From: an uncultured Candidatus Saccharibacteria bacterium
GTDB lineage: Bacteria > Patescibacteriota > Doudnabacteria > UBA920
NCBI GenBank assembly: GCA_964474825.1
Contig: CAYYWQ010000001.1
Span: 820,152-884,151 of the forward strand
DNA length: 64,000 nucleotides
Direction of reading: 5' to 3'
Shown here: positions 1 to 61,287 of the stretch, one piece after another
Numbering within the stretch: the stretch's first letter is position 1
Layout of the letters: each line of letters starts with the position of its first letter
Made by a program: the position numbers and the translations under genes
The notes under the pieces: generated by a model
What the model saw: only the letters and a program-made list of their open reading frames with translations
Databases searched by the model: none
What the model was told of the DNA's origin: nothing

Positions 1-3000
1 TTACATTAATAGATGCGTAAAGACCTGTTATTTCAGCGGGGGTTAGGGCGCGGTTAAAAACGGCAATGTCATCGAGGTTTCCGACATAGTAGTTGCTTTC
101 AGGCCAGTCATCGGACGTATTGCCGAGGTAGAGAGGCTGGTCGGTCGCTTCCGGACCCGGTGGATTGTTTGTGCTTATGTCGAGTATGCCATCAACATAT
201 ACCTGAGTGTTGGCTGCCTGCCGCAAGAGCGCAATGGGATGCCACACCCCGTCGGCGACGCTGACCGTTCCGACATACCAGCTTGAACCGTCGTAGATTT
301 GCAAAGTCCCGGTATCTTCCACCCGCAAGGTAAAACCGCGGTAGGTCCCACTGTACCTCAAATTGCTCCAAAACGCATCGTTATTTTTGGTGGAAGTTTT
401 AATCCATCCTGCGATGGAATAAGGATAAGTCGGCATTATGAAGGTGCTAATACGGCCGCTGCCTCCAAAACCCCCCCCCTGACCGAATTTGCCGGGGACG
501 TAACTGACGTTTGCAGCTGCGCCATTGTGGTTGCCTTTACTGTCATTGCTATTACCTTCCATTTTGTAGTAGCTAATTAAGGCGGGGTCAGTGGCAAGAG
601 TACTGGAAGCTAACTCCTGGTTAACAGTTATCATAGATTTCGTGGCATCCGGAAACACCAAATACCCGTTGACAATATAATAAATTTCTTCCAGCGCTTC
701 CCTGGTTAAGCTTAAATTTTTATTGGCTTTAACATTAACGTAAATATTCTTAAGGGTATCCAGTTTGTCGGTTTTGCTAATTGTTGTGGTTGTGGAAACT
801 GCTGATGTCCCAAAACTCGCGGGATCTGTTAAATACTGAAAAATGTCATCGCGTTTAGTAATCCCCACGCCTAATAATTCAGCCGCACTTTCTTTGGAGA
901 CGTTCATTTTTTGGGGCAAGGGTAAATCAGCCGCGCTTAAATCCCTAACACTGCTTACTCCCGGAACCACGGATAAGTTTACCAAACTGCCGCGGTCAAA
1001 GACTGCAGAGGTTAGAGTAGAATTGTACTCATTGGCGTCTTGCGGCAGTCTAAGCTTACCCTGCCAGACCATATAAAGTTCTTCCAGGGCCTCGCGGGTC
1101 AGCTTGGTTTCATTTGTTGTGCTGGCGGTTGTCCTAATGCTGTCCCAAACCGCGGCCAAGGTTTGGTCTTTTTGCAATTTTTCGTTTTGGTCAAACAGCT
1201 GGTTTAAGCTGCTAGTAGAGGTTAAATTCGTACCTTTAATTTCATTGTAAGTTTCCTGGGATATTATAGTATTGCCGCCGGGGTTATAATTACGGTCTAT
1301 TCTGGACAAAACTTTAAGCACATTATTTTCCACATCACTGTCTTTGGGATTTATTACCAAAGGCGTATAAACATTCCTTTTAATTTGATCCGCGTCTTTG
1401 GAATAAGTGACAGCCATGGTAAAGCTGTTTATATTGTTAACAAAAGTGTCGTCACCGCCTGTTGCGATTCTTAAACCAAAGTTAGCCATTGCCCCGGAGG
1501 CGAAGGCTTTTACTATTTTGGTTATATCCAGAGTATTAGGCCTGCTTACGTCAATAGTCAAAGCCGGACTTCGCAAGGAAGAGTCAGTATTGTTATCAAA
1601 AAAATAGCTGCCTAAAGCCGGAGCTGCGTTGCTCATTAAAGGCACAAAATAAACGCTGGGTGGATTATAGGGCCGGGCTACTTGAACCCCTCCGGTGTAA
1701 TTTGTATTACCATTAGAAAAACTCAAATCAACCGTAGTTGTGGCAATTTCGTCTTTACGATTAACTAATTCTGCCGGCAACAAAAAATCAAACTCGCAAA
1801 GATGATAATTCGAACTACCTTGATAATAAGTTCCTATCTGGCAAGCACCATTAGTATAAGACGGAAAATTAAATCCGTAATTTACATAAACTTGGCCGTA
1901 ACTTCTTGGATTGGTATTTTGAATAGAATAAATTTTTTGTTCATTAATTTTATATTCATCCAATTTGTTGGGCACGGTTAAATTACCCAGCATGGCATCA
2001 AATATTTCATCGAGGGCATAGGAAGTAAGCTCTTTGTCCTTGTCGTATTTAACTATAGCGTAAAGATATTTAACAAAGGCCTGTTTGCGGCAATCATACT
2101 TGGCATGGTCATTGGCCTCTTGGTCGCAAGCGCCATAGGGGGCAAATGAGTTGTCTATAAGACGGTCATAAATTACCAAACTGGAATAAGTAATACCCAA
2201 ATCCTCAATTTCCTTTAAGGTTTCCTGGGAAATTAATTTAGATTTGGCAAACAAAGAAGGGATACTCTTTTCCTGATAAAGATAGCCATATAAGGCCTTG
2301 TTGGTCCGGTCAATGACTTCGGTTTTTATAGCACTATCAGTTACACTGGGAATAATTTTTGAAGCGTCGTTAACCAAATCTTGGCCAATTAAATATGAGC
2401 CATTTGCCAGTTTGCCGTATGGAATTTTATTTATCGGCAACAGCAATTTGTCTTTAACAACCATGTCCATTTCTGCCAAGGCTTTGGCCGAGAGTAAAAT
2501 ATTATATTTGCTGAAAAGAAATCCGGAAACAAACTTCACGATTTCTTTTTTGGCGCAGTCTTGGTCTGCCGACTGGGAGCATTTTTCCGCAATATACGGG
2601 CTTTGGGCGGCTATTTCAAACAGCGCGTCCGCTTTATTTTTGGAGTTGAGTTTGTTTAAAGCCAGCTCGTCGTAGCCGCTTTCGGACATATAAACCGTCG
2701 GCGCGGGATTGCCGGCTTGGGTTGGCACTCCGTTTATTACCGCTTGGTAATATACGTTGACATTGTCCGGAACAACCGCTTTTACGTTAGAATTGTTAAA
2801 AGGAACGTATGTGCCGTCAAAAATATTTTGTAAGTAAACGCTCAAATCTACAGGCAAACTAACTTTACCCTTAAATACAAACCAAATTTCCTGCAGCGCC
2901 CCAAAAGAAAGATCAAGGCTTTTTTCTTTTAGGGTTTTAGCATAAAAAGCTTTGAGAGTTGTTTCCCTAACACAGGCGTCTTTGTCTGTTGATATAATTT

Positions 3001-6000
3001 TTTTACAGGTATTTGCTACAAAATCGGAAGTATAGACCGGCGTAAGCAAATTGTTAATAAACGCCGAGCTGACGCCTCCGTTTTGCGGGTTTAATTTGGC
3101 AAGCTCGGTAAAAGCCCCCTTAGACATAAAGTACTTCCCGGTTGGCGAAGAGGTGGCGTTTAACTGGTCGTTAAAAAAGATAGCATCGTCAAATTTAACT
3201 TTATTCTTGTCGGCAACAAATCCCGGATTCTTTGCCCTGACTACCTCCTTAATCCTTTCCCCGGAAACATCGTAAGTAAAGTTGGAAATACCGCCCGAAG
3301 AGTCAACAGTTTTTAGCGTATTCTTTTTTGTCCAAGTGTATAAATTATTTCCGTCGTCTAAAACATTACCGTTTAAATCATACGACATCCTTGTGGTGCC
3401 AATTAAGGACGCGGCGTGGGGGTTGCGGTAGTCCGTACCGTCATAATAATAGCTAACATCGTTTGCCGACAATAAATTGCCAACTGGGCTATAGGTAAAC
3501 TGACCGGAGACAGACTGGCCGTTTTCTACTCTAGTGGTGTTAGTCAAGCGCTGGAGTTCATCATAAACAAATTTATTCGCAATACTGCCGCCGTCGCCCG
3601 AATATTTTTCCGTGGTGCTGGTAATTAAACCGGCCAGGTTGTAATTTAGATTTTGGCTATAAAGCAGGCTGGGCGCGGTTGTACTGGCCGAAGAACAGGC
3701 GTCTGTCCCCTTGAAAACGTAAATATCGGAAAGCCTGGGCGCGGTATTTCCGCCGTTTGTGCTCGAATAGTTATAACAAGACTTAGTAATGTTGCCGTAA
3801 GTTAACTCTTTTTGCGTCCCGTCTATATTGTATCTGGCATTATTCACTACGTCAGTAGTTACTGTCTGGCCATTGACGCTTCGCTGCACTTTTACGCTCT
3901 TTTGTTTGCCGTTTGGGTCATAGGTATAAAGCAATTTACTGCCGTCCGGCAAAATTACTCCGGCTATTTGCCCCAGCGCGTTATAAACATAGTAATGGGC
4001 AAAGCTTTGATCGTCTATATATTTGGTTTCGCTCTGGATTTGCCCGCTTTTTGTGTAAGTTATGTTTTGCGTGTAGTCGGAATTACTAACACTGCAAAGC
4101 GCGCCAATGCCGTTTTGGCAATTATCGTAAGTATAGGCCGTGGTTAAATCCCCGTTGCTCTCGCTTAACGGGCGATACAATGAGTCGTAAACATAGGTAA
4201 ACTTATTTTGCTCGGGGTCAGTTTTGCTGGTTAAATTGCCTACTGGATCGTAGGTATATTTATAGACGCCGAAAGTATTGTCGCCTTTTTTGTGCAAATC
4301 TTCCTGGCTTATTAGCCGGCCTTCGCCGTCATAGGTAAAGTTGCGCGCATTGCCTTCGGCGTCTTCTAAATAAACCAAATTGCCCAAAATATTCCATTTG
4401 TAGGCAGTGACATTATTAACAGCCCCATTTTCTTCAGTTACGGATGTTACTTTGTTAAAACTATTGTATTTGTAAATTTTGGTGTGCTTGTCGCCGGTGT
4501 TATCGTAAACTTTTTTGCCGTTTACGTAATAATCCGTGTAAGTCTCGCTGTCGCCCTGTTTGGTTTTAACAAGCCTGCCAATGTTGTCATAAGTGAATTT
4601 GGTGTCCAATGCCGAATTGTACCCGGCCAATACGCCATTTCTGTCATAAGGATAAGTTAAGCTTTCCACCTGGCCTAAATTGTTATAGCGTGTAACGGCG
4701 GTTTTATTGCTATTCTCAGTGTCCGTTTCGCTGGCTTGGATGTTTCGCCCAAAACTATCAAATTTATTTTCCACTGTTTTATAAACACTACCATCTGAAT
4801 AAATACTGTCGGTTTGCACCATTCCCAAACCATAAGCGATATTGGAAGTGGAAACCAATTCCAAGTTGCCGGTCTTGGGGCTGGTGGCTGAAACTTTTAT
4901 TCTGTTGCCAAAACCGTCATAGGCGTTTTCGGTGATGCTGCCGTTAGGGTTAACGCTGGAAACCCGCAAGCCCCAAGCTTTGTCGTATTTTACATTGGTT
5001 ATCTGGCCTAACGCGTTTATGGATTGGACCGGGTTGTTATAATTGTCGTAATAAGTCGTGGTGGTATTGCCGTTGTCGTCGGTAACTTTTTCCGGCAGGC
5101 CTTTGGAATTATAGGCATAAGTGATTTTGGTATATTGGGTAGGGCTGGAATAGTTACGGGCTTCGGTTAACAGCCCTTTTTCCAAATAGCCAAAAGGCAG
5201 GTTATCGTAAAAATTAACCTTTTTGTCTATAAATTTGCCGTTTATGTCGGATTTTTCCTCGGATAAAAACTTTTGCGGGCGGTTGGTGGTGGAAATTAGA
5301 ATTGACGTGACCAAGTCGTCGCCAAGGTCGGTAATTGTGTCACTGGAAATATCATAGTTAACCTCGCCGTAATTAACAATGTGCTTTGGCAGCCTGGAAG
5401 CCAAATCGTAATCGTAGGTTTCGGCTTTTATTTGCTTGCCGTCGCTTGTGTCATACTGGGTGGTGATGGCTTCTTTAGGATAATTAAAAATTTGTCCCGC
5501 GGATTGATAAACGCCAAACGTACGGTAAGTTTCGGAATAAAGGGTGGGGCCGCCAAATAGTTGATCCTTAAACTCTTTGCCAATTAAGTTAATGGAATCG
5601 CCTCGTTCATTTAGTAACGAATTGTCGCCGTCGCCCTGATGGAAATATTTAACCGTTTTTTGACTGCCCTTTTGGACACTAACTTTACCAAACCCGGCGA
5701 ACCTGCGGTCGCGGATGTTATTAACGTCATAATACATTTTCCCCTGCTCAAAGGTATATTGCGTGGTTTCTACTAAATTGTTTACACCTTCGGTTTCCTT
5801 AACCTGGTCAACAGCCAAAATGTTTATAGGCAAATTAGGGTTAAGTAAAACCGCGGAATTTTCCATACTGGCAGTGCCTTTGTAGGCAACATCTATTTTA
5901 CTGCCCAAACTTCCGGTAACGTTAGTTAAAATGTCTGTTTTTTTAGGGTTAGTATTCTCTTGCAAAAAGCTCGTGGTGACTTTTGGATTACCTGCGTAAG

Positions 6001-7861
6001 TGTTCCAATTATTTGTCTCGTAATATATTGTTGTGCCGCCTTTTAAGTCTGGGTTATCTTTTTTTACAAAAGCTTTGCCATTATTTATATAAAGCTCTGT
6101 AAAAGTGCCTTGCGGAATAGCCGGTTTATCTAGCCAATAAGGCGATTGGTTAGTTTTATAAGACCTGATAATATCCGGCAAGCCGTCTAAATTTACGTCT
6201 ACAAACTGAACGCCCAGGTCTGTATCCACCCCCGAACCATTTGTTGGTTGATAATGAAAGGTTAAAGCGGTCGGAATTTTCATCCCCATTTCCGGACTGC
6301 CGTTCCAACCATGTCCGTTATTTAAGTACACGTACTTGCTGTTTAAGGAAGGGTTCGTACTGCTGGCAAAATCCCCTATCTTATCTATTAAACCGTCACC
6401 ATTAAAGTCGCCTTTTAGGGAATCCAGATCAGAATTGGCAAAATCTTGCGTTTGCTCAAAACCATTACCCTTATTTAAAAATGCGCCTGATTGTTCCGCA
6501 CCGTTGGCTAATACGTCCTGCAATCCGTCACCGTTTAAATCAACGGCCACCGCGGTTTTATTGTACCACCAGGAGTTTAGATTATTCGGGGAAGAATAAG
6601 ATATGGGAAAATTATATGTGCTTATAGGATAATTTACTAATGAACCCTTAACGTTCTTTTTATAAATATTGTCTGAAAAATTTTGAAAACCTTGATAATT
6701 TATATACCTGGAATTATTATACATATCCGGCAAATAGTCGCCATTGGCGTCAATAACCAAATAACTCCTGCTTCCGTCTATATAGGTATCCAAATTATCC
6801 GGCCGACCGTCCCCGTTGGTGTCTATGCTTATTGTGGAATTGTTGGACGGCGTAACCCAGTTTAAGCTTGCCGAAAAATCCAAGCCTTGGGTGTAACTAA
6901 AGGTGGTGGCCGGAAGCGATGTCCAGGACCCATCTGTCCCAAGCCGGGATTCGGTTATAGAAGAAAGCAAACTGCGACTGCCGTTTTGGCCGGTGATGTA
7001 CGCCAAGTCCAACTGGGCTTCCAAAACGCCGTCCGTATAAGCTTTAACCGATTTTAGGCGGTCAGTCATTACGGTTAAAAACCCGTTTCTGTAGCCGGCC
7101 TCCTCGTCTGGCCGCCCTTCTCTTTCAAACACCACGCGGTTTGAAAAGTTCCCCTGTTTGTCAAAGGTATAATCTATCTCCTTAGGATAAACAAAATTGT
7201 TTTTCTTTTCGTAAAAATATTTAATTTGGTTTCCGAATACGTCTTTTACTGAATTTAAATAATATTTGGAAATTTTAGTCCCACTGTCGTCCGACAGCCG
7301 GGAGTCCAAGGCCTGGCCAAAAGTGTAACTGTTGCCCGAACGGTCGGCCAGGGTCCAAATATTATTAGTAAAAGTGTAAAGTTGGTAGGAGCCGTCATCA
7401 AACTTTTGCAAATAATTATTCGTTGTTCCGGCTTTTAAGACAAGTTCGCCGCCCAGGCTGGAAACAAAAGCGTTATTGTCCGTAAACATTTTGTCTACCC
7501 CGCTTTTGGACGTGCGTTCAATATAAGGTATAGGCAAAGCCATTCCGTATCCAACAATGCTGTTTTCAGGATTTTGGGAATTATAGTTTATGGAAACAGA
7601 CGGCCCCAAACCAAACTTGCCTTTAGGCACGACAAGCGGATAAGAATAAGTAAACGCGCCGTTTGATGCATCCACACCGCTGCTGCCAATTGTCTTTAAC
7701 CGGTTGGCTTTGGTGCCAACCGTATTTAAAGCATTGGAAGTATCGCTATCCTGGATGGCTTGCGGAGCAGCCAAAGCTATCAACGGCGCCAAAGATTGTA
7801 AAGTAAACAAAAAAGCCAAAAAATAGCTTGTTAGTCGAATTTTTTTACGATTACTGGGCAT
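1..7861 (-). CDS. Giant RHS/YD-repeat protein (signal peptide, SpvB/TcdB-like N-terminal domain, multiple YD repeats, LamG-like domain near window start); ORF continues beyond window start
   Basis: ATG at 7859-7861 (minus). No minus-strand stop-bounded ORFs are listed in 1..7860, and plus-strand ORFs there are short. Hand translation of the N-terminus gives MPSNRKKIRLTSYFLAFLFTLQSLAPLIALAAP ... FTYSYPLVVPKGKFGLGPSVSINYNSQNPENSIVGYGMALPIP (SpvB-like). YD repeats include KFTYDNIGRLVKTKQGDSETYTDYYVNGKKVYDN (about 4500-4600) and YTYDPVGNLTSKTDPEQNKFTYVYDSLYRPL (about 4150-4300). Near 1-300 the translation gives LYLGNTSDDWPESNYYVGNLDDIAVFNRALTPAEI (LamG-like). Confidence 0.6.
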   Translation of the reverse strand, partial: MPSNRKKIRLTSYFLAFLFTLQSLAPLIALAAPQAIQDSDTSNALNTVGTKANRLKTIGSSGVDASNGAFTYSYPLVVPKGKFGLGPSVSINYNSQNPENSIVGYGMALPIPYIERTSKSGVDKMFTDNNAFVSSLGGELVLKAGTTNNYLQKFDDGSYQLYTFTNNIWTLADRSGNSYTFGQALDSRLSDDSGTKISKYYLNSVKDVFGNQIKYFYEKKNNFVYPKEIDYTFDKQGNFSNRVVFEREGRPDEEAGYRNGFLTVMTDRLKSVKAYTDGVLEAQLDLAYITGQNGSRSLLSSITESRLGTDGSWTSLPATTFSYTQGLDFSASLNWVTPSNNSTISIDTNGDGRPDNLDTYIDGSRSYLVIDANGDYLPDMYNNSRYINYQGFQNFSDNIYKKNVKGSLVNYPISTYNFPISYSSPNNLNSWWYNKTAVAVDLNGDGLQDVLANGAEQSGAFLNKGNGFEQTQDFANSDLDSLKGDFNGDGLIDKIGDFASSTNPSLNSKYVYLNNGHGWNGSPEMGMKIPTALTFHYQPTNGSGVDTDLGVQFVDVNLDGLPDIIRSYKTNQSPYWLDKPAIPQGTFTELYINNGKAFVKKDNPDLKGGTTIYYETNNWNTYAGNPKVTTSFLQENTNPKKTDILTNVTGSLGSKIDVAYKGTASMENSAVLLNPNLPINILAVDQVKETEGVNNLVETTQYTFEQGKMYYDVNNIRDRRFAGFGKVSVQKGSQKTVKYFHQGDGDNSLLNERGDSINLIGKEFKDQLFGGPTLYSETYRTFGVYQSAGQIFNYPKEAITTQYDTSDGKQIKAETYDYDLASRLPKHIVNYGEVNYDISSDTITDLGDDLVTSILISTTNRPQKFLSEEKSDINGKFIDKKVNFYDNLPFGYLEKGLLTEARNYSSPTQYTKITYAYNSKGLPEKVTDDNGNTTTTYYDNYNNPVQSINALGQITNVKYDKAWGLRVSSVNPNGSITENAYDGFGNRIKVSATSPKTGNLELVSTSNIAYGLGMVQTDSIYSDGSVYKTVENKFDSFGRNIQASETDTENSNKTAVTRYNNLGQVESLTYPYDRNGVLAGYNSALDTKFTYDNIGRLVKTKQGDSETYTDYYVNGKKVYDNTGDKHTKIYKYNSFNKVTSVTEENGAVNNVTAYKWNILGNLVYLEDAEGNARNFTYDGEGRLISQEDLHKKGDNTFGVYKYTYDPVGNLTSKTDPEQNKFTYVYDSLYRPLSESNGDLTTAYTYDNCQNGIGALCSVSNSDYTQNITYTKSGQIQSETKYIDDQSFAHYYVYNALGQIAGVILPDGSKLLYTYDPNGKQKSVKVQRSVNGQTVTTDVVNNARYNIDGTQKELTYGNITKSCYNYSSTNGGNTAPRLSDIYVFKGTDACSSASTTAPSLLYSQNLNYNLAGLITSTTEKYSGDGGSIANKFVYDELQRLTNTTRVENGQSVSGQFTYSPVGNLLSANDVSYYYDGTDYRNPHAASLIGTTRMSYDLNGNVLDDGNNLYTWTKKNTLKTVDSSGGISNFTYDVSGERIKEVVRAKNPGFVADKNKVKFDDAIFFNDQLNATSSPTGKYFMSKGAFTELAKLNPQNGGVSSAFINNLLTPVYTSDFVANTCKKIISTDKDACVRETTLKAFYAKTLKEKSLDLSFGALQEIWFVFKGKVSLPVDLSVYLQNIFDGTYVPFNNSNVKAVVPDNVNVYYQAVINGVPTQAGNPAPTVYMSESGYDELALNKLNSKNKADALFEIAAQSPYIAEKCSQSADQDCAKKEIVKFVSGFLFSKYNILLSAKALAEMDMVVKDKLLLPINKIPYGKLANGSYLIGQDLVNDASKIIPSVTDSAIKTEVIDRTNKALYGYLYQEKSIPSLFAKSKLISQETLKEIEDLGITYSSLVIYDRLIDNSFAPYGACDQEANDHAKYDCRKQAFVKYLYAIVKYDKDKELTSYALDEIFDAMLGNLTVPNKLDEYKINEQKIYSIQNTNPRSYGQVYVNYGFNFPSYTNGACQIGTYYQGSSNYHLCEFDFLLPAELVNRKDEIATTTVDLSFSNGNTNYTGGVQVARPYNPPSVYFVPLMSNAAPALGSYFFDNNTDSSLRSPALTIDVSRPNTLDITKIVKAFASGAMANFGLRIATGGDDTFVNNINSFTMAVTYSKDADQIKRNVYTPLVINPKDSDVENNVLKVLSRIDRNYNPGGNTIISQETYNEIKGTNLTSTSSLNQLFDQNEKLQKDQTLAAVWDSIRTTASTTNETKLTREALEELYMVWQGKLRLPQDANEYNSTLTSAVFDRGSLVNLSVVPGVSSVRDLSAADLPLPQKMNVSKESAAELLGVGITKRDDIFQYLTDPASFGTSAVSTTTTISKTDKLDTLKNIYVNVKANKNLSLTREALEEIYYIVNGYLVFPDATKSMITVNQELASSTLATDPALISYYKMEGNSNDSKGNHNGAAANVSYVPGKFGQGGGFGGSGRISTFIMPTYPYSIAGWIKTSTKNNDAFWSNLRYSGTYRGFTLRVEDTGTLQIYDGSSWYVGTVSVADGVWHPIALLRQAANTQVYVDGILDISTNNPPGPEATDQPLYLGNTSDDWPESNYYVGNLDDIAVFNRALTPAEITGLYASINV

Positions 7862-7894: not shown

Positions 7895-7923
7895 AAATTA
7901 CGCTTAAATAACGGGCTTGTCAA
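7895..7923 (-). promoter_or_regulatory. Candidate sigma70-like promoter for the RHS gene (TTGACA-17-TAATTT on minus strand)
   Basis: The reverse complement of 7918-7923 is TTGACA and of 7895-7900 is TAATTT, with a 17-nt spacer, about 35 nt upstream of the ATG. Confidence 0.25.
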
Positions 7924-8094
7924 ATGAGCTTTAAACAAATAATGACTTAAATTTAAGCCATTATAAATTGTTGTCAATAGCTAACTATGTTGGTGTCAAT
8001 GTTTGGCCTTATGCTTATTCGCTTTTTTGATAATATGTTGGAATGGCATAACAGTAAAAATTCCAATTTTTAAAATAAAGGCTACCCGCAGCAG

Positions 8095-8118
8095 AGCCTG
8101 CCTGCCGGCAGGCAGGCT
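8095..8118. repeat. 24-bp perfect GC-rich palindrome AGCCTGCCTGCCGGCAGGCAGGCT in the RHS upstream region
   Basis: Seen directly. It is self-complementary over 24 nt and sits in an otherwise AT-rich intergenic region. Confidence 0.6.
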
Positions 8119-8179
8119 GACGGAAGCTCCCTGTCTACCGCAAGCAGCCGGACTCGCTCTACGTCGCTAATAATTTCTG

Positions 8180-8215
8180 TCAAAAAAGCTCCGGAAGAGA
8201 CTCAGCCGGAGCTTT
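8180..8215 (-). terminator. Intrinsic terminator downstream of the 8254..10503 gene
   Basis: Hairpin AAGCTCCGG-N11-CCGGAGCTT. On the minus strand it is followed by a T-run (plus-strand A-run 8181-8187). Confidence 0.5.
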
Positions 8216-8253
8216 AAAAAACTATTATAGCGGTGTGGGCCTTAAAAACTAAA

Positions 8254-10503
8254 CTACTGCGCGGGTAAAGTTTTTAGGAAATCTTGCGCTTCCTGTATGT
8301 TAGGCGCGTTGGTGTCTATTAATTTTTGGGCGGTTTCCCGAGCTTTGTCTATTTGATTGTTTTGCGCATACGCTTTAGCCAAACTTAAAACCGCGCCGCT
8401 GTCTGCTGGCGAAAGTTTTACTCCCAACTCCCCCCAAAATACCACTTGGGCGTAATCTTTTTTCTGCAAGTAATAATTAGGGAGCCAGGAAATCATAACC
8501 ACATTTTGCGGCAAGAATTCCTTTGCGGCCAGTTCCCCGGCTAAAACCGCGGCTGGGTCGTCCTGCCCAGCTGAATGGTCGGCGTAAACTTCCAGCCAGC
8601 GTGCGGAAGCAGTGTAGGAAGTTAAAGGCAAAACGCTGTTGAGCCTTTTTATTTCTGCTTGGGCTTCAGGAAGGCGCTGCTGTGCAATATAAATTTGGAC
8701 CAGGAGCAGCTCTGGCTCCATACGGTTGGGCGCCAAAGCCATGGCCTTTTTAATGGAAATTTCAGCGGCCGGATCCAGCGCTGTCTGATTAACAACTGCC
8801 TGGAGGTAATAGTCGTTTGCTAATTTTTGCCAGGAAATTGGGTCATTACCCACGGCTTCCGCTACCTGTTTTTCAAAATTTGTTATTGTGCCAAGAATGT
8901 TTTTAGCAACGGACGGGTCCAATTTTTGCGATTGCGCCACGTGCGTAGATAAATCACTGTAACGCTGGGCCGTGTCCTGCAAATCAAAATTAAAAGAAGA
9001 ATTAATGGCAGACTGAAAATATTCCTGGGACTTTAGCTGGTCAATACTGGCGTACGCGTAACCATAATTAACATTCTTAGAAGCCCGGGCCGGCACTATA
9101 TTGGTAACATAGACGGCATAAATCGCAACCACGGCCGAAACTAAGGCTGCGGCAACCGCTAAGCCCGGCTGGTCCTGAATTTTATTTTTTCCTAAGTCCT
9201 GGCTAAAACCATTTGCCTCGTTCCACAAATAAACAGCAAAACCCACGAACACAAAAAACATCATGCTGGCAGGAATGGTGTCGAATACAAAGAGGTTTTG
9301 GACAACATAAGCCACAAAGCCGGCCAGTAGCAGGCACATTTGCAATAAGCTTAAAAACCCGGCCCTAAAGGCGCGGTAAAGCGCCCAAGCCACTAAAGCA
9401 ATTATGGCTAAATACGCTGCCGCTCCCAATACTCCGGTAGTAATTAAAACTTCCAAAATATAATTGTGGGGCTTGTCGAACCACGAAGCATCGTACTTTA
9501 CAATTTCGGGATTATAATACTTGTTGGCAATAAAATAATAATTTTCTGGCCCAACACCCAAAATAGGGTAATCTTTTGATCCCTTAAGTGCTGTACGCCA
9601 CTGAATAAAACGCGCATGTGTGTCGCCGCCCTGCAACTGGAACAGCTGGGTTAAGCGTCCCTGAGGCAAGTGGGGATGGAATAAATAAAGCGACCCAAAC
9701 AATAAAATAAAAAGCACTAAAATCCCATAACCCCACATTTTAAATATTCGGTTCGGATGCAATACAATAAATACAACCAAAGCAAAACCGATACCGGAAA
9801 TTAAACCAACTAAGGCTCCGCGTGTCACGCTCAGTAAAATACCTGCGAACAGCAGCGCCGTTAACAGCCATAACGTTATTTTTTTAGCCTGAGTGTCGTG
9901 GTCCTGAAGCGCAAAAAATGCAGAAAGGAACATGGGAAAGATTAAAAAGCTGCCCAAAAAAATAGGGTTTCCTAATGTGCTGGAAACACGGGAAGGCAGG
10001 GACGGGTCGGGCACAAAAGTTCCCCACCCAAGCCAGCCCGATACGCCGTTTAAGGTAATTAACGCGGCAATACCTAAAGCCACATATAAAATATACTTAA
10101 TATAAGAGCCACCAATTTGCGCCAATATAATAATATACATAGAAAGCAAAACCAAATGCGCAAGGTAATAAGCACCGCCCATGCGTTCAAAATTCCCCCA
10201 TAGGCTGCGCGTAACATTCACACCCGTAAAAGATGCTATAAAAGTTACCGCTAAAAACGCCAGCATGGCTAAAAGTAGCGGATTCTTCCAGGAAGGACGA
10301 TAATCCGGCCGCTTTATTAGTAAATACACATAAACCGGAAAAGCTAATTCAATAAAAGCCCTAAAAGCAAAAGCTTTGCTGGTAATAAAAGGAAATAGCA
10401 AATCCTTAAAAACCCACAGGGGACTAAGCAGGGATAAGGCAACAAAAATAAATAACAAGACCGCGGCTCCGGTTTCAGACGACTTTACTTGCTGTTTGGG
10501 CAT
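8254..10503 (-). CDS. Polytopic membrane protein, O-antigen ligase (Wzy_C)-like core with C-terminal TPR-like repeats
   Basis: 749-aa ORF with many TM helices and a C-terminal soluble helical-repeat region. The pattern resembles O-antigen ligase / TPR fusion proteins. Confidence 0.5.
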   Translation of the reverse strand: MPKQQVKSSETGAAVLLFIFVALSLLSPLWVFKDLLFPFITSKAFAFRAFIELAFPVYVYLLIKRPDYRPSWKNPLLLAMLAFLAVTFIASFTGVNVTRSLWGNFERMGGAYYLAHLVLLSMYIIILAQIGGSYIKYILYVALGIAALITLNGVSGWLGWGTFVPDPSLPSRVSSTLGNPIFLGSFLIFPMFLSAFFALQDHDTQAKKITLWLLTALLFAGILLSVTRGALVGLISGIGFALVVFIVLHPNRIFKMWGYGILVLFILLFGSLYLFHPHLPQGRLTQLFQLQGGDTHARFIQWRTALKGSKDYPILGVGPENYYFIANKYYNPEIVKYDASWFDKPHNYILEVLITTGVLGAAAYLAIIALVAWALYRAFRAGFLSLLQMCLLLAGFVAYVVQNLFVFDTIPASMMFFVFVGFAVYLWNEANGFSQDLGKNKIQDQPGLAVAAALVSAVVAIYAVYVTNIVPARASKNVNYGYAYASIDQLKSQEYFQSAINSSFNFDLQDTAQRYSDLSTHVAQSQKLDPSVAKNILGTITNFEKQVAEAVGNDPISWQKLANDYYLQAVVNQTALDPAAEISIKKAMALAPNRMEPELLLVQIYIAQQRLPEAQAEIKRLNSVLPLTSYTASARWLEVYADHSAGQDDPAAVLAGELAAKEFLPQNVVMISWLPNYYLQKKDYAQVVFWGELGVKLSPADSGAVLSLAKAYAQNNQIDKARETAQKLIDTNAPNIQEAQDFLKTLPAQ

Positions 10504-10654
10504 AGAAAATTCTGTTGATAAATAATGAGAAAATGCTTATTATAGATATAATAGCAAAACAAAGGACGTAGGCCAACTGTTTAACGACCTTACTAAAACC
10601 TTGTAAAGCTAAAGCAAGAAACTCATTCTCGGGACTACTAAGCCGTTCACGATT

Positions 10655-11689
10655 ATGGCAGAAAAAAAACATTTACCAACATATTTAATAGTAATAAGCT
10701 ACTGCGTCGCAGTATTTGTGGGAGCGGCGGGAGCTTCGGTCATTTGGCATAATGGCGGCCAAAAAACCTTACAAACAGTTGCCGCGCAAATTAAGCCGTT
10801 GCGGCAAAAAAATAACCCTTACCAATATATTAATCCCCTGCTGGGTTATGAAGTACCCGGCAATATTAAAGAGTTTAACGACTACGAGCCATTGCGGCAC
10901 AAAATTACCGAGGTCATTAACCAAAACATTGAACATAAACCCGACAGCTACGCTATTTATTTCCGCGATATAACCTTAGGACGCTGGAGCGGTGTCAATG
11001 AAGACACAGCCTACGCGCCCGCCAGTATGATGAAGGTCGTTATAATGATAGCTTACTTTAAGCAGGCGGAAACCGACCCGAACTTACTGGAAAAAACTTA
11101 TACCTACTCTTCCGCGGTTGGAAGCCAAATTAATGAAGTGCCTTTTGAAACTCCTTCGGAGCTGCAAATAAATAAAAGCTACACTGTGCGCCAGTTAATT
11201 GACGCCATGATAATCAATTCGGACAACGGCGCTAAAAATGTTTTACTGGATAATTTAAACCAAAATAACCTGGACGAAATTTATACCGACCTTGGACTGC
11301 CAAACCCCAGCCAGTCGGACAATTACCTAATAACGCCTAAGCAATTTTCTCTTCTGCTTCGCGTCCTTTATAACGGCAACTATTTAAGCCGCCAATATTC
11401 CGAACTGGCGCTGCAAATTATGAGCCAAGCCAAATACAACGAAGGCTTAGTCTCAGGGCTTCCAACCGGAACAACAGTGGCCCAAAAGTTTGGGGAAAAT
11501 ATCAGCACCGCGGAAGACTCTCTTACGATCACCCTGTCTAACTGCGGGATAATTTACCACCCCGGACACCCTTACATTTTATGTGTTATGACCAAGGGCT
11601 CAGACTTAAGTGGCCTTACCAAAACTATTGTTTCCATTTCCAGAGCTGTCTGGGAGGAGGTTGACTCTTACGCAAACAATAAAAAATAG
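10655..11689 (+). CDS. Membrane-anchored serine hydrolase, class A beta-lactamase-like fold
   Basis: N-terminal TM helix. SxxK (ASMMKV), SDN (NSDNGA) and a KxG-like (AQKFGE) motif are present. Confidence 0.5.
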   Translation: MAEKKHLPTYLIVISYCVAVFVGAAGASVIWHNGGQKTLQTVAAQIKPLRQKNNPYQYINPLLGYEVPGNIKEFNDYEPLRHKITEVINQNIEHKPDSYAIYFRDITLGRWSGVNEDTAYAPASMMKVVIMIAYFKQAETDPNLLEKTYTYSSAVGSQINEVPFETPSELQINKSYTVRQLIDAMIINSDNGAKNVLLDNLNQNNLDEIYTDLGLPNPSQSDNYLITPKQFSLLLRVLYNGNYLSRQYSELALQIMSQAKYNEGLVSGLPTGTTVAQKFGENISTAEDSLTITLSNCGIIYHPGHPYILCVMTKGSDLSGLTKTIVSISRAVWEEVDSYANNKK

Positions 11690-11724
11690 AAAAAAGGACA
11701 AACCATAAATTTCCCATATTATAA

Positions 11725-11752
11725 AAGCACCCCCACTCAGGGGTGCTTTTTA
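11725..11752 (+). terminator. Rho-independent terminator (bidirectional) between convergent genes
   Basis: AAAGCACCCC-CACTCA-GGGGTGCTTTTT hairpin with a T-run. Confidence 0.5.
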
Positions 11753-11776
11753 AATTGCAATAAAGTAACCTAAATT

Positions 11777-11989
11777 TTACTTGTCAGTATCCGGAATCAA
11801 GCCCTGGGTAATTAACACTGACCGCTGTTTTACGATTTCCGCGTCTTCCCCATAAAACAAACACAACCTGCCACAGCCGCGGCATTTAACTTCTAAAACT
11901 GTTGCGGAGTCATGTAGAGAGCCTTTGCAAAGAAGTTTATTACAAACCTTGCAGCGGTATTCTTTAAAAAATTTTGAGTCAATCGTCAT
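11777..11989 (-). CDS. Small C4 zinc-ribbon protein
   Basis: 70 aa, CKVC...CRGCG double CxxC pairs. Confidence 0.4.
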   Translation of the reverse strand: MTIDSKFFKEYRCKVCNKLLCKGSLHDSATVLEVKCRGCGRLCLFYGEDAEIVKQRSVLITQGLIPDTDK

Positions 11990-12053
11990 AGAAAATAATA
12001 AGTCTTACTACTATATACAATCACTTTTATCCGGTCCTGTCAAATAAGCTTCT

Positions 12054-12096
12054 GTAAAAAACAACCCCGCCCTGTCTTGCGACAGGGCGGGTTGTC
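12054..12096 (-). terminator. Intrinsic terminator downstream of the large surface protein gene
   Basis: ACAACCCCGCCCTGTC-TTGC-GACAGGGCGGGTTGT hairpin, followed by a T-run on the minus strand. Confidence 0.5.
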
Positions 12097-12147
12097 TTAA
12101 ACTTTTTGCAACTGGTTTAAGTCAGTACCTTATTTCTGGCTAAACGA

Positions 12148-15100
12148 CTAGTTGTGGATTGACACAGAGTTAGTCGGGTAGTTCGGAATATAAGTGGCTG
12201 TTAAGCTGGCGCCGTTAACGTTGTTGGTCTGTTTGACCGCAATGTTATCAGCGTTGCTGTTTACGTCTTTAAACGTAAATCCGGTAGCCGCACCCATTGT
12301 AACGGAGATAGTAGCACCAGGAGAGGCGGCAAATGTACCACCAACAGGCACCTGAATGTTATATGTCTTGCTTGTACCGGCACCAATTGTGTTGTCGGTA
12401 GACAAGGTTACAACAGTGGATCCGGAACCGCCGCTGGAAACTACCACAGCAGTGCTGCTGGCAGTTACACTTTGTCCTGTAGCATCGTCAACTATAGTGA
12501 CGCCTGCGCCGTTAATGATGGTGGTTGAAGCACCGCCAGAAGCGCTAAAGGTCAAAGGCAAGTTCCTGACAATAATATCACCCGCAGCGTTCGCAGTAAT
12601 AGTAACTTTGGCGACAGTTTGTGTGCCTGCAGTTAACAAAGCAGACGGAGCCGCAATGCTAACAGTAGGAGCGCTGCCTACCAAGTTAAAGCTGTTAGTA
12701 GCTGTGTTGTAGTAGTTGTCGTGGGTTGTACCACCGGCAATATACTTAACGTGGGTCAAGTTAACAGTGAATACCTGGTTACCGGTTTTGCCACCGACAC
12801 CAACGTTACCAAGGTTCATAGTAACCGGTACGTCTACACCGCTATAGGTGGTTGGAACAACAATGTTCAAACCAGAAATAGTTGTAGTAGCACCGACTAC
12901 GTTCCCGAGAACGCCGGCCGCAGTAATTCCAGTAACTGGGACTTCGTTAACCGTGCTAGTAGCCATAAAGTCTAACTGAGTAATAGTCAGACCGCCACTA
13001 GCGGCAACAAAGTTAAAGGTACCAGCTGGTTGGTTCTGGCCGCCCGCAATGACAAAGGAGTCGATTGGGGAAGAGGCCTTAAGAGTCAAAGAGCTGATTG
13101 TACCAACACCAACAGTAATGAGCTGACCGGTTACAGAGTTACCAGCAGAAGCAGCGCTCACAGTGGACACGCCTCCGTCAGTTGTTAAGTAAACAGTCTG
13201 GCTGCTGGTTGTACCAATACCCGTACCAGTTAAGCTGGGCTGTAAGGTACCAGAAGTGTTGCTGATGTCAGCATAGACATCAACAGTAGCAGTCTGGTTC
13301 ATAGCCACAGTGAAGTTAACGCTAAACTGGGTGGAAGAAGCGCCGGTCATTGGCGTGGTTCCGCTCGGGAAATCCGGAGTCACCAGGTAAAGGTTAGCAA
13401 TACCGGTGGACGGAGTAATCGAGTTGTTAGCGCCGGCAACAAAGGTGACAGTAAGAGTATTAACTCTTACTCCGTCAGCCTGGCTGGCCTGGATTACGAA
13501 CGAACCAATTTTCTGCTTGGTTAAGTTCGGGGCAATTGTTTGGTTGTTATAAGCAGTATTCTTACCTGTGGTCGCGGAGCTGGCAGAAACAGTCTGGGCT
13601 GTGCCAGTGTAGGTACTACCGGCTGTCGGACCTAAGGTGAAGGAGGTTACGCCCTGGAAAGAAGAAGTGGTGGTTGTCACCAAATCAGCTCTAACCGTGG
13701 CCACTCCGGTGTTGCTTACTAGGGTGTTATCACCCTTAACTGTAACAGTTACAGTCTGGCCGGCCGGGATTGTGAACAAATTGGTCGTGCCATAGGTGTA
13801 AGAAATTACACCGGTACTGTCAGCAGTTGAAGTGGAGTAAAGCGCGCTCTGGGAAGAACCGACGCTACCACCGTTAACATACAAAGAAAGGTTATTGAAA
13901 CCTTCTGTGGCTCCAGCGGAAGCTACAGCTCCAGCCGCGTTCTTGTAAGTCAAAGTGACTTTCAAGGTTTGAACTTTCACATCTTCACCATAAGCCTTCA
14001 TAGTCCATTGGCCTAAGGTTACGTTGGAAGCGTTCTTAACGAACTGGTTTTGGGTGTACGTAGGATCAGTCTGGATGCTGACTGTACCGCTGTTAACAGA
14101 GGTCAAGCCAGGATTTAACTGAACAATGGTCGCACCGCTGCTGCCAGTCAAAGGAACGTTAACGCCGTAGCTTGAGTCCAAGAACAAGGCGTCAGTAGAA
14201 GACTGGATGGTAAATTCGTAGTTGTAGGAAGAACCTTTAACTACATCACCATGAAGTTCAATAGTGTGGCTGCCTGTGTTCAAGTTAACCGGGCTGCCGG
14301 ATAAGTCGAAGATAACCACATTGGTGTTGGCACCGCTGTTCATAACGGAAGCAGTGCTGCCGGCTTGGGAGCCGTCCACCATCAGTTTAAGATTTTGGAT
14401 AGCGTCTGCAGCGACGGAACCAATTTGCTTGAACTGAATGTACTGTAACTTAACAGCTCTCTGGCTGACTGAAACAGTCGTACCCCAGAGGTTAGCATTC
14501 ATAGTGCCGGCATTAATGCTGCCCGCGGTACCAGCGCTGGCGCCGGAACCGGTAATGACACTGTTCATGTTGCTGTTAACGCTCAACTGCACGCTAGCGA
14601 CATCGCTAACCGCGGCAATGTTGAATAAGTTACCAGTAATGGAGGTAGACATTGGGGTGCCGTTGGCAACCGTGTAGGAAGCCAATTGAGCGCCTACTGT
14701 CTGACCGGAAACGGAGCTGGCCACGTCAACTCTCACGCCAATAACGGCAGAGCCATTAACTGTGAACAAACCGTTGGAATTTGCAAAGGTTACCTGTCCG
14801 TTGGAGAACGTACCGGCATCGGTGATGCGGTTGTTGCCCATGTAGAGGTAAACATTGTTGATGCTGGTGTCAGAAGAAACACCAGTTCTCTTAATAACAA
14901 CCTGGGTTACAGTGCCTGTGCCGCTAAAGGCAAAGTGGGCAATGTCAGCGCCAGTTTGGCTACCTCGTGTAGTAACAGAGGAGGAAACCAAGGTGTTAGC
15001 AGCCGGGGTGTCGGAGGAAAGCATAGCGCTTACGCTGCCGTTAACTACCGGAGGCTGATTTGGGTTGCCTGGGTTGCTACCAGTTGTCCAAGTCGGGTTC

Positions 15101-15777
15101 AATTGGCCAGCTTGGCGGGCTACCATGACGCCAGTTTGGGTCAAAGCTTTGTCCGCTGTGTTGGCCGGAACCACGTCGCTGAAGGAATAGCCCCAGCTGT
15201 TGAAGGTGGTAAGGTCAGGAATACCCAATAAGCCGTTGCTGCCGACTAATTGGACTGTACCGCCGTTATTGACCAAAACACCTGTGCGGTGAGCAGCAGT
15301 TGTGTTGTCAATGTTGGAGGTTTTGCTTAAGAAGGAAGAATCACCATACTGTGCGCGGCTAAAGCTAAAGCCGTTGCCGGTGAACACGGAAGCGCTGGTA
15401 AAAGCGGCTTTCATGCCTCCGGTGACCAAGGCACATTCGCCTTTGACATCGGAACCTTTAGTAGCGGTGGCACAGAAGATTTTGCCGTCTTGCGGAGGAA
15501 TGAATCCAGCCGAGTCAACAGGCAAATTGAGGTCATCCGAGTTAGCATCTACTACGGTCGCAAACGAGTTGAAACCATAAGAAGTAAATGCTCCCGCGGA
15601 GGTGTAGGCGCGGCGGGTGCCACTGGAAGTAATGTACCAGATGGTGCCATCCGAGCTTTTGACGTTTGTGCCTACGCCGTGCGCAGCAGCGTGAGCTGCT
15701 AACGGGGCGACTAGGGACGCAACCATCGCGGCAGCGGAACCTACAGCAAAGATTTTCTTTGCGAGAGTATCTTGCAT
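12148..15777 (-). CDS. Large secreted Thr/Ser/Gly/Asn/Val-rich low-complexity surface protein (S-layer or adhesin-like)
   Basis: 1209-aa ORF. Signal peptide MQDTLAKKIFAVGSAAAMVASLVAPLAAHAAAHG. SD AAGGAG upstream. Leader/promoter region of about 680 bp. Confidence 0.6.
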   Translation of the reverse strand: MQDTLAKKIFAVGSAAAMVASLVAPLAAHAAAHGVGTNVKSSDGTIWYITSSGTRRAYTSAGAFTSYGFNSFATVVDANSDDLNLPVDSAGFIPPQDGKIFCATATKGSDVKGECALVTGGMKAAFTSASVFTGNGFSFSRAQYGDSSFLSKTSNIDNTTAAHRTGVLVNNGGTVQLVGSNGLLGIPDLTTFNSWGYSFSDVVPANTADKALTQTGVMVARQAGQLNPTWTTGSNPGNPNQPPVVNGSVSAMLSSDTPAANTLVSSSVTTRGSQTGADIAHFAFSGTGTVTQVVIKRTGVSSDTSINNVYLYMGNNRITDAGTFSNGQVTFANSNGLFTVNGSAVIGVRVDVASSVSGQTVGAQLASYTVANGTPMSTSITGNLFNIAAVSDVASVQLSVNSNMNSVITGSGASAGTAGSINAGTMNANLWGTTVSVSQRAVKLQYIQFKQIGSVAADAIQNLKLMVDGSQAGSTASVMNSGANTNVVIFDLSGSPVNLNTGSHTIELHGDVVKGSSYNYEFTIQSSTDALFLDSSYGVNVPLTGSSGATIVQLNPGLTSVNSGTVSIQTDPTYTQNQFVKNASNVTLGQWTMKAYGEDVKVQTLKVTLTYKNAAGAVASAGATEGFNNLSLYVNGGSVGSSQSALYSTSTADSTGVISYTYGTTNLFTIPAGQTVTVTVKGDNTLVSNTGVATVRADLVTTTTSSFQGVTSFTLGPTAGSTYTGTAQTVSASSATTGKNTAYNNQTIAPNLTKQKIGSFVIQASQADGVRVNTLTVTFVAGANNSITPSTGIANLYLVTPDFPSGTTPMTGASSTQFSVNFTVAMNQTATVDVYADISNTSGTLQPSLTGTGIGTTSSQTVYLTTDGGVSTVSAASAGNSVTGQLITVGVGTISSLTLKASSPIDSFVIAGGQNQPAGTFNFVAASGGLTITQLDFMATSTVNEVPVTGITAAGVLGNVVGATTTISGLNIVVPTTYSGVDVPVTMNLGNVGVGGKTGNQVFTVNLTHVKYIAGGTTHDNYYNTATNSFNLVGSAPTVSIAAPSALLTAGTQTVAKVTITANAAGDIIVRNLPLTFSASGGASTTIINGAGVTIVDDATGQSVTASSTAVVVSSGGSGSTVVTLSTDNTIGAGTSKTYNIQVPVGGTFAASPGATISVTMGAATGFTFKDVNSNADNIAVKQTNNVNGASLTATYIPNYPTNSVSIHN

Positions 15778-16270
15778 TTTATTATATTGCTCCTTTTCCA
15801 GGATTGATTATTCAATTGAGACAATCAATTGGTCTGGAAAAATTTTAATTAATGTTTTCCCAATTCGCATTGGGACACCCCCCTGTCCTTTAAACTATTG
15901 TCGCTCTAGAGATCAACAAAGGCTTAAAAATACAAAGGTGTGATTATTGGTATCCTAAGAAGGAACTTTAACGCCAACAGATCGACCTTGGCACAAAATG
16001 TTCTTTGTATATTTTCCCCAAGCATGGAACTAAAATACGCAAAGCTTTTTGGCCCAGTTAGCTGGCACCTTAATAGGTCAATAACTAAAGTTGTAAAAGA
16101 CAACTAAAGAATGACTCGAAACGCTTTTAAAACTACAGTTGTATAAACGCTATAGTTTTTGGCTTTGTTTCAAGCTTCTAGAGTTATCTAACACCAAGAC
16201 GGGCTAAAGCAGTGGTATGTTACAGCCGTGTTGATGTTTCTGACCAAATGGTTTTTAAGACACAAAAAGC

Positions 16271-16333
16271 CAGGAAATCCACACAAATTTTAGCTTATTT
16301 AAGGCTAATTTATAAATTTGTGGATATTTCCTG
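16271..16333. repeat. 20-bp inverted repeat (CAGGAAATCCACACAAATTT / AAATTTGTGGATATTTCCTG) forming a long hairpin between tRNA-Pro and the surface-protein gene
   Basis: Seen directly. 20-bp arms, 23-nt loop. Confidence 0.4.
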
Positions 16334-16465
16334 ACCTTCTAATTCACAGGCTGTGTATAAATTGGAGATGACGGTAATCAAGCTCTGTTTGAACATATTA
16401 ACCGCATTATAACAGAAGAGCTTAAGGTTGTCAAAGTAAAACAGAAAAATAAAATTAGTGTTCTA

Positions 16466-16539
16466 TGGTCGGGATGCAGGGAATTGAACCCTGTCTACCT
16501 GCTCCCAAAGCAGGCGTACTACCGGTATACGACATCCCG
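16466..16539 (-). tRNA. tRNA-Pro (anticodon UGG), CCA encoded
   Basis: Reverse complement GGGATGT...CTGCTTTGGGAGCAG...GGTTCAATTCCCTGCATCCCGACCA. Cloverleaf with a 7-bp acceptor stem, anticodon loop TTTGGGA. Confidence 0.85.
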
Positions 16540-24869: not shown

Positions 24870-25003
24870 ATAAAAAAATCCGCCAAAGCGGATGGATAAT
24901 TTTATCTTCCCCGCGAGGGGCTAGAATTAGCACCGTATCGCCTTTCGGCGGATTGGTTGCTGGCAGGTCATTGGGCTAGTTCCCTAACTGCGCTCTTGAT
25001 AAA
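24870..25003 (-). promoter_or_regulatory. SAM-I (S-box) riboswitch with expression-platform terminator, in the metK leader
   Basis: Minus-strand RNA UUAUCAAGAG...UAGGGAACUAGCCCAAUGA...GCAACC...GGUGCUAAUUCU...GAAGAUAA matches the SAM-I conserved core. It is followed by the hairpin AUCCGC-UUUG-GCGGAU plus a U7 run (24873-24896). Confidence 0.65.
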
Positions 25004-25020
25004 TATTAAGTTGTAAAAAC

Positions 25021-60953: not shown

Positions 60954-60981
60954 TGGTTTCCTCCACCAATTTGTCAAAGTT

Positions 60982-61241: not shown

Positions 61242-61287
61242 GTTGGAAGGTTTGACGATGCTTAACGCGTAACTAAAAAGTATAGCG

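Follow-up and report, generated by a model that had tools for sequence, protein, structure and literature searches.

A giant SpvB and YD-repeat protein of a Patescibacteria bacterium, probably a single-chain Tc-like polymorphic toxin, with a long lectin-bearing insertion behind its shell

Toxic enzymes are quite generally packaged and delivered by Rhs and Tc cocoons, and the stand-alone proteins that combine an SpvB domain, a β-propeller and an Rhs shell without a TcA partner raise the question of how such molecules find and enter their targets. We address this question through a stretch of 64,000 nucleotides (the window) from an uncultured Candidatus Saccharibacteria bacterium (GTDB lineage Bacteria; Patescibacteriota; Doudnabacteria; UBA920; GenBank assembly GCA_964474825.1, contig CAYYWQ010000001.1, positions 820,152–884,151), which opens with a giant minus-strand gene that is cut by the window edge. 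On balance, we consider that this gene probably encodes a Sec-exported, single-chain, TcB–TcC-like Rhs polymorphic toxin of a bacterium of the Candidate Phyla Radiation (CPR, Patescibacteria), and that the portion within the window makes up the N-terminal two-thirds to three-quarters of the full protein. Between its shell and the place where an Rhs core would be expected, the protein embarks on a long excursion of lectin-type and helical modules that it shares with a small clade of relatives and that suggests one answer to the question of targeting.

The reading frame runs from the ATG at 7861 to window position 1, and translation gives 2620 codons with zero stops, which bears out the claim of a preliminary description of this DNA that a single minus-strand frame of more than 2600 codons is open here. 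Base 1 of the window is the start of codon 2621, and the open reading frame (ORF) continues past the window edge. By our own estimate, the chance of such an open run is about 1e-70 (with stops making up ~6% of random codons at 42% GC), and the GC content of the gene (0.41–0.44) is that of the local baseline. Sequence searches recovered 318 relatives of the encoded protein (herein the query) at E ≤ 1e-10, and those among them that are named are mostly metagenome-assembled genomes (MAGs) of Patescibacteria; six relatives from independent assemblies (P0001–P0006) are colinear with the query ORF at 45–52% identity. Because the homologue alignments begin at query residue ~3–16 and a promoter-like match lies upstream, the ATG at 7861 is a credible start. 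The N-terminus that follows it, with basic residues, a hydrophobic stretch at residues 12–30 and A-L-A at 29–31, appears to fit a Sec signal peptide, a feature that a hydrophobicity scan finds in all members of the clade; the structural model of this end has a predicted local distance difference test score (pLDDT) below 50 over residues 1–58. The gene and its 5′ features are as follows.

1..7861, minus strand: ORF of 2620 codons from the ATG at 7861, without a stop, C-terminus cut by the window edge, colinear with P0001–P0006.
7950..7977, minus strand: sigma-70-like promoter match TTGACA-16-TAAATT in the 392-bp upstream intergenic region (consensus scan only; 10 of 12 positions agree).
7769..7861, minus strand: predicted Sec signal peptide, residues 1–31, with RKKIR, a hydrophobic core and A-L-A before the cleavage site (sequence reading and hydrophobicity scan).

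The first 1540 residues are made up of this signal peptide followed by an SpvB-type domain, a β-propeller and a β-shell of YD repeats; the last three are placed as follows.

6887..7684, minus strand: SpvB/TcB-type N-terminal β-sheet domain, residues ~60–325 (Pfam SpvB; pLDDT ~90; Foldseek matches to 6p0x and to TcB chains).
6047..6844, minus strand: integrin/FG-GAP-like β-propeller, residues ~340–605, with repeated DxNGDGxxD (FG-GAP_3 below cutoff; conserved columns; model).
3242..5929, minus strand: YD/RHS-repeat β-shell block, residues ~645–1540 (RHS_repeat and YD_repeat_2x; long β-hairpins of pLDDT ~90).

Profile searches of the ORF returned RHS_repeat (PF05593, 9.4e-27), YD_repeat_2x from NCBIfam (TIGR01643, 1.4e-18) and SpvB (1.9e-11, residues 66–150, above its cutoff), while FG-GAP_3 (residues 441–493, 9e-4) reached 20.2 bits and thus fell below its curated cutoff of 26.9; the D, N and G columns of the propeller's DxNGDGxxD motifs are nonetheless invariant in 39–67 relatives. 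An AlphaFold model of residues 1–1200 (39-sequence alignment; pLDDT 82, predicted template modelling score 0.82) is all-β, with a sheet domain at residues 60–325, short blades at 340–605 and long hairpins thereafter. When this model was compared with the PDB by Foldseek, the predicted structure matched TcdB2–TccC3 best (6suf_F, E 3.8e-46, query template modelling (TM) score 0.71), followed by YenB and TcdB1, with E values of 1e-46 to 1e-40 for these three; 4o9x, 4igl and 5kis were matched as well, and the N-domain of SpvB (6p0x) was matched by the model at E 4.6e-10 with a target TM of 0.62. Type VI secretion system (T6SS) Rhs proteins, SGS1 and teneurins superpose on the model only via the YD part. 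By sequence, the repeats of T6SS Rhs proteins are the sole matches in the PDB (E 7e-12 to 5e-8), and sequence identity between the query and TcB is 13–15%. The predicted fold of residues 1–1200 is TcB-like, propeller included, and by its architecture the gene probably belongs to a known class, the TcdB/TcaC-type polymorphic toxins, of which it would be an insertion variant.

By reading the sequence, the preliminary description had recognized a signal peptide, an N-terminus of SpvB type, DxDG segments like those of a propeller, YD repeats and a LamG domain, and all of these are borne out by sequence, profiles and model: the peptides it quoted are all present in the translation (GLGPSVSINYNSQNPENSIVGYGMALPIP at residues 84–112, YTYDPVGNLTSKTD, FTYDNIGRLVKT and LYLGNT...GNLDDIAVFNRALTPAEI), and the profile checks that it proposed returned SpvB and RHS_repeat at the values given above and Laminin_G_3 at 1.4e-20. 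Its comparison of the architecture to Tc-toxin C components and polymorphic Rhs toxins holds as regards the Tc-like polymorphic Rhs class and needs correction as regards the subunit, since Foldseek places residues 1–1200 with TcB and not with TcC.

Beyond the shell, the query departs from the usual architecture of the family. Canonical relatives (~2000 residues) align as two blocks that flank an excursion of the query clade, and their YD block aligns with the query as far as residue 1537.

2..3241, minus strand: in-window part of the excursion, residues 1541–2620, non-Rhs (split alignment; canonical relatives pass straight into the Rhs core here).

The split is seen in the alignment of P0018 with the clade member P0005, in which residues 134–1659 of P0018 correspond to 63–1563 of P0005 and residues 1667–1850 correspond to 3577–3742. 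The closest relatives (P0001–P0005, 3329–3951 residues) are colinear with the query through the excursion. Measured in 66 relatives, the stretch that separates the YD block's end from the cleavage motif is 147–196 residues long in 41, 220–860 in 15 and 1739–2197 in 10, and these last 10 are exactly the clade members that carry an Rhs core. Because of this three-way distribution, we interpret the excursion as an extreme insertion at an insertion-tolerant junction. The window edge cuts the query inside the insertion, just past its first LamG domain; to judge from the relatives, the excursion of the query would likewise be an insertion of ~1.7–2.2 thousand residues before the core.

The ~1080 residues of the excursion that lie in the window account for ~40% of the in-window protein. 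Its recognizable parts are listed here in order from the shell.

2843..3055, minus strand: helical module copy 1, residues 1603–1673, with a Cys pair and L-S-x-G-A-L-Q-E-I (five-copy hidden Markov model (HMM), 5e-32; model helices).
2426..2635, minus strand: helical module copy 2, residues 1743–1812 (five-copy HMM, 2e-30; model helices).
1958..2173, minus strand: helical module copy 3, residues 1897–1968 (five-copy HMM, 2.5e-32; model helices).
1394..1951, minus strand: β-sandwich, candidate CBM96-like domain, residues ~1971–2156 (model β-strands, conserved Cys pair, Foldseek).
1031..1246, minus strand: helical module copy 4, residues 2206–2277, LTREALEELY (five-copy HMM, 2.5e-26; model helices).
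638..844, minus strand: helical module copy 5, residues 2340–2408, LTREALEEIY (five-copy HMM, 2e-28; model helices).
29..454, minus strand: complete LamG/concanavalin-A-like lectin domain, residues 2470–2611 (Laminin_G_3, 1.4e-20; Laminin_G_2, 8.7e-6).

Apart from the LamG domain, this region stands outside the described families. Pfam finds nothing credible in residues 1540–2470, even when they are searched as six domain-sized pieces at E ≤ 1, and HMMER, run exhaustively with the excursion against 1.84 billion representatives, returned 20 proteins at E ≤ 1e-10, all from the same clade or fragments of it, while weaker matches extend no further than the LamG domain's leading edge. A search with the final 600 residues of the in-window protein returned no related locus from the genome-contig or metagenome-contig collections. 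The predicted structure (pLDDT 65, 13 sequences) consists of helical modules, the β-sandwich at residues ~1971–2156 and further helical modules. The helical module spans ~70 residues, has L-[ST]-x-x-A-L-x-E-[ILM] as its motif, frequently along with a Cys pair, and was found with a small HMM for which five motif-anchored segments of the query were used, self-BLAST of the ORF having seen no repeats. By this HMM there are 5 copies in the query, 5–7 in P0001–P0005, weaker copies in P0007–P0013 and none in the canonical short relatives. An SLH-like or dockerin-like identity, suggested by the motif, was dropped for lack of profile support. The module is restricted to this clade and, together with the insertion of ~2 thousand residues, constitutes an undescribed element.

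For the β-sandwich, a region in which the pLDDT of the model is ~50–85, the best Foldseek matches are a chondroitin-sulfate-binding carbohydrate-binding module (CBM; 8wab, E 8e-4, target TM 0.58) and phage tail proteins through their CBM96 domains (E 1e-4); Pfam has no match to residues ~1971–2156 even at E ≤ 1. Two cysteines of this domain, C468 and C483, are invariant in the underlying alignment (A1), and the conserved Cys pairs would fit an extracytoplasmic location. The LamG domain scores 74.4 bits against a cutoff of 27.6 (Laminin_G_3 profile positions 8–150 of 151) and aligns with the first of two LamG domains in P0005; it decorates the chain internally and is not of the pre-toxin kind.

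What lies at the far end of such an insertion can be read from the relatives. An Rhs-associated core is present in 10 of the 13 clade relatives (P0002–P0005 and P0008–P0013; relaxed motif, alignment consensus), and the profile Rhs_assc_core (TIGR03696, cutoff 32.5 bits) matches P0005 at residues 3648–3737 (52.8 bits) and P0003 at 3202–3290 (46 bits). The core of the relatives ends in DPxG followed by K, R, Q, E or L, ~200–260 residues before the C-terminus, and bears a conserved aspartyl-autoprotease signature (R...D...DPxG). Core and tip of these ten relatives lie 700–1300 residues past the point at which the window cuts the query. The helical modules and LamG at the in-window end of the query find their closest counterpart in P0005, a protein that continues to a core and a lysozyme. 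By comparison with these proteins, the query chain would return to a canonical core and a polymorphic tip of 200–260 residues, and we think it likely that the query does carry both. Its core, its tip and any immunity gene would then lie ~2–4 kb beyond the window, which is likely, not certain. The preliminary description had likewise placed the toxin end outside the window, a view that the ten relatives favour and that the complete relative P0001, which has neither core nor tip, tempers; it had also put toxin and immunity genes just upstream, for which ~2–4 kb further is the better estimate.

The tips of the relatives measure 203–258 residues in the ten clade members and mostly 126–337 residues across the wider relatives, and they belong to at least four unrelated families: Phage_lysozyme (GH24, 6e-24), LHH nuclease (4e-10), Lipase_3 (3.6e-5; this tip contains GHSxGG and carries the precomputed label "Phospholipase-like") and an SLT-like family (8e-4, sub-threshold), with some tips matching no family. 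The lysozyme tip is that of P0005, the lipase-like tip that of P0004 and the LHH tip that of P0013. Small ORFs directly follow the giant gene in two loci (L001 and L004), and a 173-residue ORF overlaps the gene end at the locus of P0005. At that of P0013 (L004, 13712–18710, CPR MAG GCA_043719005.1), the small ORFs directly downstream (82 residues, DUF6881, DUF6572 and DUF6881) are followed further on by a 414-residue orphan fragment of a YD shell, further small ORFs, and the genes of a DUF4145 protein and of a PT-TG pre-toxin protein; this looks like the layout of a classic polymorphic toxin with an array of orphan toxin/immunity cassettes.

Two further loci differ in their surroundings. The gene for P0007 lies directly downstream of resolvase/recombinase, terminase-like/DEAD helicase, N6_N4 methyltransferase and SNase genes (L005, 1–6000), which suggests a mobile-element or prophage context for this copy; viral contigs scanned with the query yielded no phage-borne relatives. 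The gene for P0001 lies directly downstream of a glycosyltransferase/epimerase cluster and the query gene adjoins a Wzy_C O-antigen-ligase-like gene (8254–10503), which hints at a link between the giant genes and envelope-polysaccharide loci.

Several points weigh against this interpretation. The 2620 in-window residues of the query contain no TIGR03696 match and no DPxG motif, and its core, tip and immunity gene are not within the window. The gene of the top-scoring relative, P0001, at 52% identity, is complete (3329 residues; L087, 6001–15990); it keeps shell and excursion, lacks core and tip, and is followed by a gene for an unrelated membrane protein. P0007 also lacks both and ends in a glycine-rich domain. 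The ORFs downstream of the relatives match no recognized immunity family, the excursion model is of only moderate confidence, and the CBM assignment rests on Foldseek matches of E 1e-4 to 8e-4. Those that concern P0001 and P0007 would be expected if the protein were instead a toxin-less giant adhesin or surface scaffold, in which the YD shell serves, as in teneurins, as a platform for lectin and helical modules that attach the episymbiont to its host, with no core or toxin. The in-window sequence, with lectin-type modules and no catalytic domain, and the position of both the query and P0001 beside envelope-polysaccharide genes (Wzy_C; glycosyltransferases and epimerases) are also in keeping with such a scaffold. 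We regard it as unlikely all the same, as 10 of the 13 members of the clade have both core and tip, among them four of the five close relatives that are complete, the last in-window region of the query aligns best with a relative that has a core and a lysozyme, and a hollow TcB-like shell that encloses nothing would be odd.

A different assignment would make the query the BC subunit of a tripartite Tc (ABC) toxin, its propeller docking on a TcA pentamer encoded elsewhere and its tip being injected into eukaryotic cells. The TcB chains of Photorhabdus and Yersinia are by far the best structural matches, and the propeller, which gates onto TcA in Tc toxins, is conserved; however, on the sampled side, which covers 56 kb, no large ORF has a TcA/VRP1-type Pfam match, no TcA-like gene is found in the loci of six relatives, and the tips of relatives include peptidoglycan hydrolases, which points to bacterial targets. 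Since this N-terminal architecture has moreover been treated as a widespread stand-alone class of polymorphic toxins (PMC3482391), we consider a tripartite complex very improbable. Least credible of all is an assembly chimera or decaying pseudogene. An independent short-read contig of the same organism from Logan (SRR14271372; L003, 8.6 kb), which corresponds to window positions ~7900–16500, ends exactly at the start of the giant gene, which suggests that the region is hard to assemble, and internal repeats could promote misassembly; the frame of 2620 codons is nevertheless uninterrupted, it is colinear from end to end, excursion included, with at least five independently assembled relatives, its GC content (0.41–0.44) matches the genome and the protein model is of high confidence. 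The Logan break is consistent with a repeat-rich giant gene that is difficult to assemble. Taking these alternatives together, a Sec-exported polymorphic toxin remains our preferred interpretation.

How does this protein compare with the systems already described? With the Tc toxins (TcdB2–TccC3, 4O9X and 6H6E; YenB–YenC, 4IGL) it shares the SpvB-type N-domain, the inserted β-propeller and the YD/RHS shell, and its relatives end in an Rhs core with the R/D/D signature and in a variable tip of ~200–260 residues that resembles the hypervariable region of TcC. In contrast to the Tc toxins, the query is a single polypeptide with a Sec signal peptide, a shorter shell and a CPR host, no TcA was found in the window, and in its clade the lectin/helical excursion of ~2 thousand residues sits before the core. 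T6SS Rhs effectors (RhsA, 7Q97; Tse5, 8CP6; Tse15, 8UY4) have the YD-repeat shell in common with the query; their N-termini, however, are PAAR/VgrG-linked and include neither SpvB nor a propeller, and they superpose poorly (query TM < 0.3). We know of no T6SS in CPR bacteria.

As defined by Zhang, Aravind et al. (2012; PMC3482391), members of the TcdB/TcaC class open with a signal peptide and SpvB, continue through an integrin-like β-propeller and RHS repeats and end in a C-terminal toxin that is polymorphic, and immunity genes and orphan cassettes are linked to them; CPR/Patescibacteria are absent from the phyletic list of that paper. The query agrees with this class in signal peptide, SpvB, propeller and RHS repeats. 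In the canonical form the core directly follows the YD block, as it does in 41 of the relatives considered here, whereas the query clade has its insertion of 1.7–2.2 thousand residues at this point. Shells decorated with carbohydrate-binding domains are also known: in mosquito SGS1 (3364 residues, 8FJP) and teneurins (6FB3), the outside of the YD shell bears β-sandwiches of CBM or lectin carbohydrate-recognition type inserted in the shell sequence, and the teneurin cores are proteolytically inactive (PMC9935623). Both resemble the query clade in having shells with inserted carbohydrate-binding domains, and SGS1 is similar in overall size; the insertions of SGS1, however, are single domains within the repeats, whereas that of the query clade is a multi-module arm of ~2000 residues at the core junction, and the structural match of SGS1 to the query is weaker than that of TcB (E 8.5e-20, query TM 0.28).

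A giant RHS protein in a small, reduced genome had been called unexpected in the preliminary description. This does not stand: the list of homologues is dominated by Patescibacteria MAGs, and in 2018 a Saccharibacteria RHS/YD protein of 2487 residues was described that has PA14 and galactose-binding domains and an immunity gene beside it (Starr et al. 2018; PMC6031116). As far as its described architecture goes, that protein resembles the query in being a giant secreted RHS polymorphic-toxin-like protein that is encoded by a CPR genome and bears accessory domains of lectin type; its accessory domains differ from those of the query, and the published account does not place them relative to the core. 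The SpvB–Rhs family is abundant in CPR bacteria and already in the literature, and hence is not unexpected there.

A single contig of 1.21 Mb carries the proteins of the window, and the GroEL encoded there has 76–86% identity with MAGs entitled Saccharibacteria, Patescibacteria group or Doudnabacteria and no more than 63% with anything else, which makes the host a small-genome CPR/Patescibacteria bacterium. The remainder of the window contains no paralogues of the giant gene and no orphan cassettes, and its other neighbours belong to the ordinary chromosomal complement: a Wzy_C/TPR membrane protein (734 residues in the SRR14271372 assembly, 15 codons shorter than the longest ORF of 749 residues), a β-lactamase-family protein, pentose-phosphate and glycolytic enzymes, MetK, GroEL, RelA/SpoT, ComEC, ribonucleotide reductase (RNR) and FtsZ. 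The Beta-lactamase2-family gene (10655–11689, plus strand, 1e-39) is divergent beside the Wzy_C/TPR gene; β-lactamase-like genes in CPR bacteria are reportedly discussed in the literature. A SAM-I riboswitch (24899–25005, minus strand, 57 bits) lies directly upstream of metK (23619–24797), which is an ordinary arrangement. Two long minus-strand ORFs match no Pfam family, one of 1209 residues (12148–15777), over which GC rises to ~0.49, and one of 1679 residues (50470–55509) with a weak match to PHROG 15587, of unknown function (1.7e-5); neither is related to the giant Rhs protein. From 56000 to 64000, GC is 0.50–0.60 as against ~0.42 elsewhere in the window, and the long minus-strand ORFs of this block (56059–58089, 58541–60391, 61288–62457 and 62707–63714) match no Pfam or PHROG family with one exception, a 616-residue ORF with a weak Tubulin/FtsZ GTPase match (7.9e-9); the block is situated a few kb from the genuine ftsZ (49024–50232). 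An rRNA operon was considered as the source of the rise in GC and discarded, as Rfam finds no rRNA; a foreign island or a cluster of divergent tubulin-like genes could account for the block.

Physical contact with host cells is something on which CPR bacteria depend and, to our knowledge, few of their contact molecules are known apart from pili. We propose that the giant protein would be exported by the Sec pathway, after which the YD shell would enclose the tip and the Rhs core would cut it free inside the shell by autoproteolysis. By analogy with the decorated shells of SGS1 and teneurins (PMC9935623), the external lectin, CBM and helical arm may dock the particle on surface glycans of a neighbouring cell, which could be a competitor or the bacterium on which the episymbiont lives. 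Some trigger would then release the tip, without TcA, to attack the envelope or nucleic acids, while a small downstream gene would protect the producer.

If the simpler reading is true, the query is merely another member and an insertion variant of the class described in 2012. A bolder reading, which we hold to be speculative and improbable, is that the excursion of ~2000 residues is a built-in receptor-binding and possibly delivery arm that does the job of TcA. The protein would then be a Tc-like weapon in one chain, self-contained and Sec-secreted, by means of which the ultra-small episymbiotic cells of CPR bacteria dock on host-cell glycans and deliver enzymes that degrade wall or membrane (lysozyme, SLT, lipase); beyond ordinary competition among kin, such weapons would contribute to the way in which CPR bacteria breach their hosts or feed on them, and the ~70-residue Cys-helical module would represent a new family of extracellular domains. 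As to how stand-alone SpvB–propeller–Rhs proteins find and enter their targets without TcA, the clade suggests one answer, a very large lectin/CBM arm inserted exactly where the shell closes, and the peptidoglycan- and lipid-degrading tips of the relatives make the family a testable candidate for host-envelope attack or epibiont competition.

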